From the NCBI RefSeq assembly GCF_041886205.1, contig NZ_CP169029.1: a DNA stretch of 64,000 nt. One strand, written 5' to 3'. The translations under genes and the position numbers were made by a program. The notes under the pieces were generated by a model. That model was not told where the DNA came from and did not search any database. It saw only the letters and a program-made list of their open reading frames with translations. Shown here in pieces: positions 3,751 to 58,045 of this stretch. Position 1 is the first letter of the stretch; each line of letters begins with the position of its first letter. Origin of the DNA: Escherichia coli. GTDB taxonomy: Bacteria > Pseudomonadota > Gammaproteobacteria > Enterobacterales > Enterobacteriaceae.

Positions 3751-6139
<2,389 letters not shown>

Positions 6140-6192
6140 TCTTTACGCCATTAACTTCTTAAATTCATACGATGCAAAAGGCATCGCTACAA

Positions 6193-7260
6193 TTACGCCC
6201 GGGCAGCCCGGCTCACTTCATTTGCCACTCGCTCGGTGGCATCCGGAATGGATGCAGCGCGGGCGCGTTCTGCCATGGTTAATAAGGTTTCTCGCGACCA
6301 CCCGGCCAGGGTGTTGGCGACAGCATCCACGCTAAGCTGTGGCTGCTCGATAATTTTGGCTGCGCCCGCTTTTTCCAGCGGTAGCGCATTCCAGTATTGC
6401 TGGCGGTCTTTATGTTGAAACGGTACAAACAACGCCGGTAGTCCCGCCGCGGCGATTTCACTCACCGTTAACGCACCAGAGCGGCAAACGACGACATCCG
6501 CCCACGCATACGCCGCCGCCATATCATCAATAAATTCCGTCACTTTATGCTGCGGTTGCCCCGCTTCGGCATACGCCTGTTCAACGGATTGTTGCGAACC
6601 TTTGCCGCTCTGATGCCAGATAGTGACTGAATCACCCAGTTTCGCAGCAACCTGCGGCATTGTCTGGTTAAGAATGCGTGCGCCCTGGGAACCACCCACT
6701 ACCAGCACACGAACCGGACCTTCACGTCCAGCCAAACGTTGCTGCGGCAACGGTAGCGCCAGCACATCGGTACGCACCGGGTTACCCACCACTTCCGCAT
6801 TAGGGAAAGCGCCTGGAAACGCCTGCATCACTTTGGTGGCAATCTTCGCCAGCCATTTATTGGTTAAGCCCGCAATACCGTTTTGTTCATGAAGTACAAC
6901 CGGAATGCCTAACGACCACGCGGCCAGACCACCAGGACCTGATACGTAGCCGCCCATACCGAGCACCACGTCAGGTTTGTACGCTTTCATAATCGCCCGC
7001 GCCTGACGCCAGGCATTGAAGATACGCAGCGGCGCAGCTATCAGTGCTTTTATACCTTTTCCACGCAGACCAGAGATACGAATGAAATCAATTTCGATGC
7101 CATGTTTTGGCACTAAGTCCGCTTCCATACGGTCGGCAGTCCCCAGCCAGCGAACTTGCCAACCCTGAGCCATTAGATGGTGCGCAACCGCCAGTCCCGG
7201 GAATACATGTCCACCGGTTCCGCCTGCCATCACCATTAATCGCTTTCCTTGACCACTCAT
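6193..7260 (-). CDS. murG: Lipid II synthase MurG (UDP-GlcNAc transferase, 355 aa)
   Basis: ORF track 355 aa, [26 protein letters not shown]... Confidence 0.96.
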
Positions 7261-8501
7261 CGTGAACCTCGTACAAACGCCTGCGCTTTCTCCAGACGCG
7301 TTTCATAATCAATACGCAACAGCATCATGATGGCTGTCGACATAATCAGTAAGCTCGAACCACCGTAACTGATCAGCGGCAATGTCAGACCTTTGGTCGG
7401 TAACATCCCCGCCGCCGCGCCTACGTTAACCAGCGCCTGGAAGCTAAACCAGATGCCAATGGAACAGGCGAGAAAACCGGAAAAACGGTGGTCAATTTCT
7501 AACGCTTTGCGGCCAATCGACATCGCACGAAAAGCGACGAAGAATACCATTAAAAGTGCCAGCACCACACCGACATACCCCAGTTCTTCGCCGATAATGG
7601 CGAAAATAAAGTCAGTGTGCGCTTCCGGCAGATACTCCAGTTTTTGTACCGAGTTACCTAAACCTTGCCCCCAAAGTTCGCCGCGACCAAACGCCATCAG
7701 CGATTGCGTTAACTGATAGCCGCTGCCAAAGGGATCTTCCCACGGGTTCCAGAATGCGGTAACACGGCGGATACGGTACGGTTCGGCGAGTATCAGCAAC
7801 ACAACCGCTGAAATGCCCATACCGATAATGGCAATGAACTGCCACAATTTCGCTCCCGCCAGGAACAACATCGCCAGCGTAGTCACAAACAACACCACCA
7901 CCGTACCAAGGTCTGGCTGTGCCAGCAGTAACACTGCCAACACCAGAATCACGCCCATCGGTTTCAGGAAGCCGCGCAGGTTATTACGTACTTCGTCGCC
8001 TTTACGCACCAGATAGTTGGCGATATAGCAAAACAGCGACAGTTTTGTCAGCTCCGCAGGCTGGATACGCAGCAAACCGAGATCGATCCAACGCGATGCC
8101 CCTTTAACCGAGCTACCCACTACCAGCACGATCATCAGCAGGATGATAGATCCGAGCAGCATCGTGGCACTGTAGCGTTGCCAGAACTCCATCGGCAGAC
8201 GCAGCGTAATGATCGCCAGAATAAACGCCAAAATCAGATAGACGCCATCACGCTTCGCGAAGAAGAACGGATCGTTGGTTAAGCGTTGCCCTATGGGCAT
8301 TGACGCCGAGGTCACCATGATAAAGCCAATCGCCGCGAGGCCGAAGGTCAGCCACAGTAAGGTGCGATCGTACATGATCAGGCTGTCGGTATCTTTTTCC
8401 CGCGAGCCCATCACCCAGCCCTTTAGCGCCGTGGAGATCCAGACCAGGATACTGAATCCTGGCAGGCGCGGCATTTTCAGGCGAGGGAGAGATAAACGCA
8501 T
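7257..8501 (-). CDS. ftsW: Peptidoglycan glycosyltransferase FtsW (SEDS family, 414 aa)
   Basis: ORF track 415 aa starting MM; known protein starts at the second Met ([15 protein letters not shown]...); polytopic membrane protein. Confidence 0.93.
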
Positions 8502-55817: not shown

Positions 55818-56666
55818 ATGGCGACATACCTTATTGGCGACGTTCATGGTTGTTACGATGAACTGATCGCATTGCTGCATAAAGTAGAATTTACCCCTGG
55901 GAAAGATACCCTCTGGCTGACGGGCGATCTGGTCGCGCGCGGCCCGGGTTCGCTGGATGTTCTGCGCTATGTGAAATCCTTAGGCGACAGCGTACGTCTG
56001 GTGCTGGGCAATCACGATCTGCATCTGCTGGCGGTATTTGCCGGGATCAGCCGCAATAAACCGAAAGATCGCCTGACACCGCTGCTGGAAGCGCCGGATG
56101 CCGACGAGCTGCTTAACTGGCTGCGTCGCCAGCCTCTGCTGCAAATCGACGAAGAGAAAAAGCTGGTGATGGCCCACGCAGGGATCACGCCGCAGTGGGA
56201 TCTGCAGACCGCCAAAGAGTGCGCGCGCGATGTAGAAGCGGTGCTGTCGAGCGACTCCTATCCCTTCTTCCTTGATGCCATGTACGGCGATATGCCAAAT
56301 AACTGGTCACCGGAATTGCGGGGGCTGGGAAGACTGCGTTTTATCACCAACGCCTTTACCCGTATGCGTTTTTGCTTTCCAAACGGTCAACTGGATATGT
56401 ACAGCAAAGAATCGCCGGAAGAAGCCCCTGCCCCACTGAAACCGTGGTTTGCGATTCCTGGCCCTGTCGCTGAAGAATACAGCATCGCCTTTGGTCACTG
56501 GGCATCGCTGGAAGGCAAAGGTACGCCGGAAGGTATTTACGCGCTGGATACCGGCTGCTGCTGGGGTGGGTCATTAACCTGCCTGCGCTGGGAAGATAAG
56601 CAGTATTTTGTCCAGCCGTCGAACCGGCATAAGGATTTGGGTGAGGGAGAGGCGGTCGCGTCTTAA
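55818..56666 (+). CDS. apaH: Bis(5'-nucleosyl)-tetraphosphatase (symmetrical) ApaH (282 aa here)
   Basis: ORF track 282 aa, [16 protein letters not shown]...; metallophosphatase GDx[14 protein letters not shown] motifs. C-terminus ...[10 protein letters not shown] differs from my recollection of K-12 (...DLGEAAAS). Confidence 0.95.
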
Positions 56667-56690
56667 CGAATTACCATTCAGGGAGGAATA

Positions 56691-57290
56691 ATGGCTGACT
56701 ATTTTGAAATACGTGCTGATTACAATCAGCACACCATCACGGTTTATCAGGCTTACAATGATGCAATCGCTGACGTCGCCGTACGTAACGGGCGATTTGG
56801 CGCACCTTTTTCATTCAACCGCATGACCTGGATTAAACCCTCTTTTATGTGGATGATGGAGCGTAGCAACTGGGGACTGAAAAAAGATCAACAACACATT
56901 CTCGCAATCCGAATCAAACGCACCTTCTTTGATACATTGCTGGAACAAGCGGTGCTAACCACGCCGGAAGCCCATGTGTATCCACATGCAGGCATTTGGG
57001 AAACGTTATTTGCACAAGCAAATGTGTATGTTCAGTGGGATCCCGAACGCAGTATAAATGGTAAAAAACTGGAGCACCGATCATTACAGCTTGGTATTTC
57101 CCGTAACTTGATCAGTCAATTTAACGAAGACGCCATTGTTGCCATTGATGATCTGACTCCGCTGGTGCGAAAGTGTCATAACCTTTTGATAAACGGTAAA
57201 ACAACACAGGCGAAATCCTTCCTGCCGCCAGAAAAAATTTACCCTGTTAGTGCAGCTGCGAGAAAGGCTTTGGGAATGAAAAATTCCTGA
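56691..57290 (+). CDS. Hypothetical protein (199 aa), first gene of the apaH–folA insertion; possibly DUF4291-like
   Basis: ORF track 199 aa; strong GGGAGG Shine-Dalgarno 7 nt before the ATG; low GC (~40-45%); TWIKPSFMWMMERSNWG motif. DUF assignment is from memory only and is low confidence. Confidence 0.8.
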   Translation: MADYFEIRADYNQHTITVYQAYNDAIADVAVRNGRFGAPFSFNRMTWIKPSFMWMMERSNWGLKKDQQHILAIRIKRTFFDTLLEQAVLTTPEAHVYPHAGIWETLFAQANVYVQWDPERSINGKKLEHRSLQLGISRNLISQFNEDAIVAIDDLTPLVRKCHNLLINGKTTQAKSFLPPEKIYPVSAAARKALGMKNS

Positions 57291-57325
57291 GACAAATACG
57301 CGCCTATTAAGCGGAAAATATTTAA

Positions 57326-57775
57326 GTGCGACAAATCAACACCGGGCTTAATACCAGAGAAATTATTCTGGAAATGATTGACGAAGCAGATGCCCCCCCA
57401 TTTGCTGAGCAGCGGACCTGGCATCGCAGGCGAATCGCTTTTCTATGTGATTGCATCAGCGTTGCTGTCGACTACGGCTTCTTCTGTTCTGTTTCTCAGC
57501 AGTCAATAATGAACATAACCAGGATGGCTGAAGATGTATGGATAATAGAAAGTAAAATGACACAACTCATTGATATCTGGCAACAACTTCAGCGGCTTTA
57601 TCCGCCAAACATTATTCCCTGCACCCAGCAGTTACCCGCTAAAGAATTGCTTGAACTGCTACTTTCCAGTCCTGACGATCTTCGAATAGTTGAAATCCCT
57701 GACATCATCGGTGATGTTTTTGATGACCAAACCTGGATTCGATTATTCAAAAAACACTTTGCTGATATTATCTAA
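57326..57775 (+). CDS. Hypothetical protein (149 aa from GTG 57326, or 133 aa from ATG 57374), second gene of the apaH–folA insertion
   Basis: ORF track 149 aa; co-oriented 35 bp after the first ORF; weak RBS at both candidate starts; acidic, Cys-containing, no recognisable motif. Confidence 0.6.
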   Translation: MRQINTGLNTREIILEMIDEADAPPFAEQRTWHRRRIAFLCDCISVAVDYGFFCSVSQQSIMNITRMAEDVWIIESKMTQLIDIWQQLQRLYPPNIIPCTQQLPAKELLELLLSSPDDLRIVEIPDIIGDVFDDQTWIRLFKKHFADII

Positions 57776-58012
57776 CTACGATGTGATGTGTAACAATCCA
57801 AAATACATCGCCAGACGATAGACCAAAAAGAAAGTATTTAGCAGATACTCAACATTCTGACTTCTGTACAGAAATAGCAGAGTTTAAAAACTTAAAACTT
57901 CCGGTACTCATTAGAGAAACATCCAGTTTCTTCTGCAAATTCATTTAATGCCGAGATGGCATCCTCGTTTACTTCAGTCCACTGTAGAGTAGCTTGAGGA
58001 TTTAGACCTACG

Positions 58013-58045
58013 CAGTGAGCGCGACTCACAAAATCGCGCTCACTG
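58013..58045. other. Perfect 11-bp inverted repeat (stem-loop) about 47 bp downstream of the folA stop
   Basis: cagtgagcgcg-actcacaaaat-cgcgctcactg; no U-tract on either side. K-12 has a REP element in the equivalent position (recollection). Confidence 0.6.

Follow-up and report, generated by a model that had tools for sequence, protein, structure and literature searches.

A stand-alone DUF4291 protein beside apaH in Escherichia coli is a divergent member of the ADP-ribosyltransferase fold superfamily, nearest by predicted structure to the RNA-targeting toxin RhsP2

RNA ADP-ribosylation is a young field, in which few writers are known. RhsP2, a type VI secretion system (T6SS) toxin of Pseudomonas aeruginosa, ADP-ribosylates the 2'-OH of structured RNAs with a triad of R1490-Y1524-E1576, together with a basic patch to which K1574 belongs (PMC12340436), and bacterial PARGs strip RhsP2-type 2'-O-ADP-ribose from RNA (PMC11833690). 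A 2025 survey predicted that the DUF4291 family is an atypical ADP-ribosyltransferase (ART), docked nicotinamide adenine dinucleotide (NAD) into it, took the motifs QA[YF], W[IV]K and [AS]IQ to stand for H/R, Y/S and E, placed the family nearest to exotoxin A and RES, and guessed at a protein substrate (PMC12522546); RhsP2 goes unmentioned there. This survey was the only literature found under the name DUF4291, its NAD binding is a docking result, and no biochemical data were found. Here we analyse a DUF4291 gene in a 64,000-nucleotide chromosomal stretch of the E. coli contig NZ_CP169029.1 (the window), where it opens a short islet of open reading frames (ORFs) between apaH and folA. Family and fold of its product are secure, and the activity we infer: the reading we prefer, tentatively and at slightly under an even chance, is a cytoplasmic, stand-alone enzyme that uses NAD+ or ADP-ribose on RNA or a phosphorylated nucleotide and is probably co-transcribed with apaH.

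The protein matches Pfam DUF4291 (PF14124) with an E-value of 2.2e-68 and 230 bits, over model positions 1–180 of 180 and query residues 6–184, far beyond chance, and RefSeq names the identical protein 'DUF4291 domain-containing protein' (WP_000796363.1). The original prediction, made by eye from the sequence, had suggested a possible DUF4291-like family, and this was correct; the protein is an already annotated member of a family without assigned function. It does not differ from the Pfam family or from WP_000796363.1, being a typical single-domain member in which all family-conserved residues are present. The peptide quoted at the time, RMTWIKPSFMWMMERSNWG, corresponds to residues 44–62, a block that holds the most conserved residues of the family in a 57-sequence alignment (R44, W47, K49, P50, F52, W54 and R58). 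The remaining conserved positions of the E. coli protein are Y19, Q20 and A21, Q67, Q115, W116, D117 and P118, Q133 and G135, and P179 and E181. Both family motifs, VYQAY (18–22) and TWIK (46–49), are present; among the 57 homologues W47 and K49 do not vary, and conservation of Y19, Q20 and A21 is 90% or higher. A word-index search returned 7790 relatives, the clusters at 50% identity number 1864, and the family is frequent among fungi and other eukaryotes (PMC12522546). The protein is basic, with an isoelectric point of 9.3 against a family median of 8.8.

The gene is real, intact and under strong purifying selection. Compared with the Superficieibacter electus orthologue, which is 81% identical and also lies directly after apaH, non-synonymous divergence (pN) is 0.116 and synonymous divergence (pS) is saturated at 0.80, and only 2 of 600 nucleotides differ between two E. 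coli strains whose islets differ by 3% overall. Because these values go together with retention of the conserved residues, we regard it as a maintained gene and not as debris. NCBIfam, PADLOC and PHROGs gave no match for DUF4291, single-sequence and profile searches of the PDB gave chance-level results only (best E 0.086 and 1.4), and in none of these databases did confident homology to a characterised enzyme unrelated to accessory functions emerge. A phage origin was rejected, as no tblastn match was found in 50,697 phage records. The 60 plasmid matches listed below 60% identity lie mostly on megaplasmids, chromids and large linear plasmids, not on small mobile plasmids, and two near-identical E. 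coli matches from the plasmid search are in records of 0.4 and 1.3 Mb.

An AlphaFold2 model, calculated template-free, reached a predicted local distance difference test score (pLDDT) of 97.1 and a predicted template modelling score (pTM) of 0.92. The model contains the ART core fold with its split β-sheet NAD+ cleft, and Foldseek returned RhsP2 as the sole match at E <= 0.001 (E 7e-5, probability 1.00, template modelling score 0.68–0.70 on the target). Since model, Foldseek search and an independent publication agree, the ART fold assignment is confirmed, and the predicted structure places DUF4291 securely within the ART-fold superfamily, as one of its divergent members, with RhsP2 as the nearest solved structure. 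Judged from the model, the characterised protein closest to it is an ART that targets RNA and not protein. Likeness to diphtheria toxin and exotoxin A (both H-Y-E) and to the RES proteins ParT and MbcT is much weaker, and their canonical His/Arg and Glu are absent from DUF4291; it is from this weaker similarity, to exotoxin A and RES, that a protein substrate was inferred in the published survey. DUF4291 also departs from RhsP2 in several respects. It has an extra helical insert (about residues 87–110) and a C-terminal helical tail, and, unlike RhsP2, it comes without Rhs cage, PAAR, T6SS context or RhsI2-like immunity gene, occurring instead as a stand-alone chromosomal gene that is found in eukaryotes too; neither the Rhs/PAAR delivery fusion nor the cognate immunity gene of an RhsP2-type toxin was found.

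No catalytic motif had been recognised in the original prediction. That judgement stands for the canonical triad, H-Y-E or R-S-E, which is absent, but it does not extend to three conserved blocks, YQA[YF] (19–22), TW[IV]K (46–49) and [AS][IL]Q.G (131–135), which have been equated with ART motifs I–III (PMC12522546). In the published structural alignment, Q20 (strand 15–22), W47 (strand 46–49) and Q133 (strand 126–136) of the E. coli protein fall at the triad positions, giving Q-W-Q, conserved as such across the family, where RhsP2 has R-Y-E. The spacing fits that of RhsP2 if the extra helical segment is allowed for, and the basic residues R120, K125, K126 and R130 precede Q133 in the sequence as R1563, K1564, K1567 and K1574 precede E1576 of RhsP2. 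Glutamine in the third place of the triad is no bar to activity, because VopU is an active natural H-Y-Q mono-ART (bioRxiv 10.64898/2026.05.07.723553), and Tpt1 and several PARPs function despite lacking the glutamate (PMC12522546). VopU itself was rejected as a member of the same family; its E. coli homologues are carried on pO55-type plasmids.

In the mechanism that we propose, NAD+ (or an ADP-ribose derivative) would bind in the cleft formed by strands 15–22, 46–49 and 126–136, R120, K125, K126 and R130 would contact nucleic acid in the manner of the basic patch before E1576 in RhsP2, and ADP-ribose would be transferred to, or processed on, an RNA or a phosphorylated nucleotide. With Gln where the catalytic Glu would be, phosphate or another acceptor that can do without a general base is attractive. 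KptA/Tpt1 (PF01885), likewise of the ART fold, uses an RNA phosphate as acceptor and manages without a catalytic Glu; it is found alongside DUF4291 in clusters of Bacteroidota and is present in about 10% of DUF4291 neighbourhoods (PMC12522546).

Expression of the gene may be linked to that of its upstream neighbour. The apaH gene is the last of an lptD-surA-pdxA-rsmA(ksgA)-apaG-apaH array on the + strand, convergent with folA-kefC-kefF on the − strand, and the ORF directly 5' of the Superficieibacter DUF4291 gene has a Metallophos Pfam match and corresponds to the apaH of the window at E 1.3e-181. The spacer between apaH, which stops with TAA at 56664–56666, and the DUF4291 gene measures exactly the 24 nt first reported, the 199-codon ORF with its ATG start appears in the ORF list as described, and none of the 24 nt differs in strain AMSHJX01. 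Within the spacer, GGGAGG at 56681–56686 is, judged by sequence, a strong and well-placed Shine-Dalgarno motif; the distance of 7 nt given for it is right only from its middle, the last G lying 4 nt and the first G 10 nt from the A of the ATG. The spacer contains no terminator-like site, and neither terminators nor structured RNA were found in the gaps after apaH, DUF4291 and the following gene, ORF2 (best fold z −1.96, without a U-tract). A single promoter-like match (9/12) overlies the spacer, and the whole region has 6 such matches against 3.9 ± 2.0 expected by chance. With no terminator-like site in the gap, with the repetitive extragenic palindrome (REP) spacer of K-12 gone and with promoter-like matches at chance frequency, read-through from the rsmA(ksgA)-apaG-apaH operon, which had been suggested at the outset, is plausible, and apaH is the probable transcriptional driver. 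The DUF4291 protein would then most likely be translated from rsmA-apaG-apaH read-through transcripts by way of its own Shine-Dalgarno.

We surveyed gene context in one genome per species, covering 80 loci from at least 8 phyla, with ADP-ribose genes detected by seeded hidden Markov model searches. Clusters headed by the Nudix-type regulator NrtR accompany DUF4291 in Chryseobacterium, Prevotella, Dysgonomonas, Bacteroides and Kordia (53–60% identical to the E. coli protein) and in Crocinitomix (43%). These assemblies of ADP-ribose erasers and NAD users contain NADAR, ADP-ribosylglycohydrolases (ARH), a macro-like phosphatase, bacterial PARG, SIR2 and KptA/Tpt1, with the content conserved and the order shuffled between genera. 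In Chryseobacterium and Prevotella the clusters are long and co-directional, with NrtR first, and additionally hold DUF2971, a 2-oxoglutarate oxygenase and an adenylosuccinate-synthetase-like gene. One homologue, 37% identical, is the middle gene of a trio, NrtR-DUF4291-PARG, and isolated examples elsewhere include Kitasatospora, where NADAR is 15 nt upstream, and Blastopirellula, where SIR2 is downstream. It has been proposed that eraser clusters under NrtR/WYL regulation serve against foreign ADP-ribosylation (PMC9503650). We also observed that the Bacteroidota clusters carry one to three ARH genes and several conserved ORFs without a Pfam family (94–295 aa), among them a 136-aa ORF in 7 loci.

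Domain fusions, sought among 38 longer family members, join DUF4291 to a macro-like domain, to an MJ1316 RNA cyclic-end recognition domain, to MqsA and to a recurrent HEAT-like N-terminal domain. The fused macro-like domain belongs to the same family as the gene adjoining DUF4291 in Prevotella and matches the 'phosphatase' phrog_335 (E 1.6e-34). The HEAT-like domain, of about 165 aa with a WALADIGT-type motif and a weak Pfam match to HEAT_2, was seen in P0132, P0150, P0162, P0166, P0193, P0235, P0258 and P0268 and at the C-terminus of P0198; other long members, such as P0205/P0236/P0256 and P0144/P0208, have unannotated N- or C-terminal domains.

Outside Enterobacteriaceae, the closest relatives of the E. 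coli protein are found in Listeria costaricensis (68% identical) and in Bacteroidota (50–60%). The gene of Listeria, a Firmicute (locus 5290–6597), follows a His_Phos_1 phosphatase gene at a distance of 15 nt, has no co-directional gene downstream and is nearer to the E. coli copy than any from Bacteroidota; this suggests that the gene was transferred between phyla and that it adjoins a phosphoesterase gene in a second case.

Several observations weigh against an RNA- or nucleotide-directed enzyme. Sequence identity to the RhsP2 toxin domain (PDB 7RT7) is only 10–11%, the mapping of Q20, W47 and Q133 onto R1490, Y1524 and E1576 is one that we infer from the published alignment and residue spacing, and Gln at two of three catalytic positions is without characterised precedent. 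ADP-ribose-related neighbours occur in only about 12 of the 80 loci, mostly Bacteroidota, and when 124 adjacent co-directional ORFs were scanned against Pfam, NADAR came up 5 times and TetR 4 times, with the rest scattered; the E. coli gene has neither an eraser nor NrtR nor any other ADP-ribose gene beside it, and its adjacency to apaH may reflect nothing but an insertion hotspot. Guilt by association is thus lineage-limited, confined largely to one phylum and with no recurrent neighbour beyond NADAR and TetR. The association with ADP-ribose genes is real within these limits, in line with the figures of 10–28% in the published survey (PMC12522546), and DUF4291 is mostly a loner. A universal gene partner was rejected: when ORFs within 3 kb were clustered, none was common to more than 8 of the 80 loci, and those that came closest reflect synteny in related genera. 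The E. coli gene would, on our preferred reading, be an orphaned component that arrived horizontally in the apaH-folA hotspot. A bolder form of that reading, which we consider a long shot, is an active, non-toxic RNA modifier with an unprecedented Q-W-Q site that places a reversible ADP-ribose mark on a 2'-OH or terminal phosphate; PARG, macro, ARH and NADAR proteins would erase the mark in Bacteroidota, and the placement beside apaH, whose product hydrolyses Np4A (dinucleoside tetraphosphate) caps as well as diadenosine tetraphosphate (Ap4A), would be functional, the two acting in one RNA-end or nucleotide-stress pathway.

The same residues and clusters could instead belong to a pseudo-enzyme, which kept the ART fold, lost the transferase chemistry and binds NAD+, ADP-ribose or ADP-ribosylated RNA as a sensor, an adaptor or a protective decoy beside erasers. 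The motif I R/H and the catalytic Glu are both replaced by Gln, erasers (NADAR, ARH, PARG and macro) predominate in the Bacteroidota clusters, clusters of this NrtR/WYL-regulated kind have been proposed to act against foreign ADP-ribosylation (PMC9503650), and the inactive ART-fold proteins PARP13, TASOR and RCD1 are among the structural matches. However, some 20 positions with polar or aromatic residues vary little or not at all across phyla, Q20, R44, W47, K49, R58, Q115, D117, Q133 and E181 among them, a pattern more typical of a catalytic site; VopU shows that a third-position Gln is compatible with catalysis, and Tpt1 and several PARPs are active though they lack Glu. We regard a binding-only role as rather unlikely.

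The acceptor might also be a small molecule, the protein acting like RES and MbcT as an NAD+ phosphorylase or glycohydrolase that releases ADP-ribose-1''-phosphate or ADP-ribose, which would then be processed by phosphatases or sensed by NrtR. NrtR does sense ADP-ribose (PMC9503650), the macro-like domains adjacent or fused to DUF4291 are those that match the phage phosphatase family, in three genera the gene directly upstream encodes a phosphoesterase (ApaH in Escherichia and Superficieibacter, His_Phos_1 in Listeria), and Gln instead of a general base would suit an anionic phosphate acceptor. We find this improbable.

It is likewise doubtful, to a similar degree, that DUF4291 is a toxic, RhsP2-like ART and ORF2 its cognate immunity protein, in a small addiction or competition module. 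The nearest structure is indeed a T6SS toxin, an orphan ccdA is also in the islet, and ORF2 is kept as a downstream companion, 3' of DUF4291, in both Escherichia and Superficieibacter and, within E. coli, changes at about 20 times the rate of DUF4291 (29 of 450 nt, 17 residues, against 2 of 600), but the protein is a bare 199-aa domain without PAAR, Rhs, secretion or delivery domain, no PADLOC model matches, most of the 80 loci have DUF4291 alone, without a conserved downstream partner, as in Listeria, fungi and other eukaryotes frequently have members of the family (PMC12522546), and ORF2 homologues were found only in Escherichia, Superficieibacter and metagenome sequences. On this last ground ORF2 was also rejected as a general partner of DUF4291.

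The preferred reading of an NAD+/ADP-ribose enzyme acting on RNA or nucleotides bears on a large family without assigned function that extends over bacteria, fungi and some animals. A housekeeping-type RhsP2 relative carried by one E. coli strain in ten would make it easy to begin experiments: the protein is small and soluble, the host is tractable, and there are natural strains with and without the gene at one defined locus. If the protein is active with Gln at two triad positions, accepted ART-fold chemistry would be widened; if it is inactive, DUF4291 becomes a candidate sensor of ADP-ribose or NAD. Either outcome would help to interpret the NrtR-regulated 'eraser' clusters of gut Bacteroidota.

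The islet itself (Table 1) was compared with the corresponding region of K-12, in which the stop codons of apaH and folA are 77 bp apart and the spacer contains a REP (PMC7167474; also our alignment). In the window this spacer is completely replaced by 1425 bp (56667–58091), with a GC content of 35–48% against 52–59% in the flanks, so the DUF4291 gene was rightly described as the first gene of an island. By megablast of 56600–58150, 536 of the 5426 complete E. coli genomes (about 10%) have the whole islet and 5370 have the flanks, and all 536 have DUF4291, a hypothetical gene and a CcdA-family antitoxin between apaH and folA. No direct repeats or attachment (att)-like sites bound the islet, so the mechanism of insertion is not apparent. 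Because O157:H7 carries ccdAB at the same apaH-folA site (PMC7167474), the site is a known insertion hotspot.

Table 1. Features of the apaH-folA islet and its edges in the window.
Feature	Position	Strand	Basis or remark
apaH (Ap4A hydrolase)	55818..56666	+	282-aa ORF; RefSeq annotation of identical locus
apaH-DUF4291 spacer with Shine-Dalgarno, left islet edge	56667..56690	+	sequence; K-12 spacer diverges right after apaH stop
DUF4291 (PF14124) gene, 199 aa, predicted ART fold nearest RhsP2 toxin domain	56691..57290	+	
ORF2, orphan all-helical 149-aa protein	57326..57775	+	GTG start
Orphan shortened CcdA-family antitoxin ORF, 59 codons	57892..58071	−	TTG start; RefSeq 'type II toxin-antitoxin system CcdA family antitoxin'
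folA (dihydrofolate reductase), right islet edge	58092..58571	−	RefSeq annotation of identical locus; K-12 alignment

ORF2 has no family match in the databases searched, NCBIfam, PADLOC and PHROGs among them, and DUF4291 and ORF2 together gave 0 matches to the anti-phage defence models of PADLOC and 0 to the phage families of PHROGs. ORF2 shares 48% identity with the C-terminal part of its longer counterpart, the 218-aa gene after DUF4291 in Superficieibacter, which has an additional N-terminal CxxC...CxxC segment. At the apaH-folA site of Superficieibacter electus (6001–8178), DUF4291 and this longer ORF2 are accompanied by a PRiA4_ORF3-domain gene in place of ccdA. Between Superficieibacter and E. 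coli, pS for DUF4291 (0.80) exceeds that for folA (0.62) and apaH (0.56), which hints that the islet genes have a history separate from that of their flanks.

The islet of the window shares with the ccdAB(O157) insertion its position in the hotspot between the convergent folA and apaH, and a CcdA-family ORF after folA. Unlike that insertion it has no ccdB, and its DUF4291 and ORF2 genes are unrelated to ccd, lying on the other strand after apaH. Neither a ccdB-like ORF nor a remnant of one was found in the islet, in the ORF list or by tblastn with ccdB query sequences, so that the adjacent ccdA and ccdB of a type II ccdAB system are not both present. The CcdA-family ORF, 3' of folA, occurs only together with the islet (543 genomes), and it holds a perfect 12-nt inverted repeat (58013–58024 / 58034–58045).
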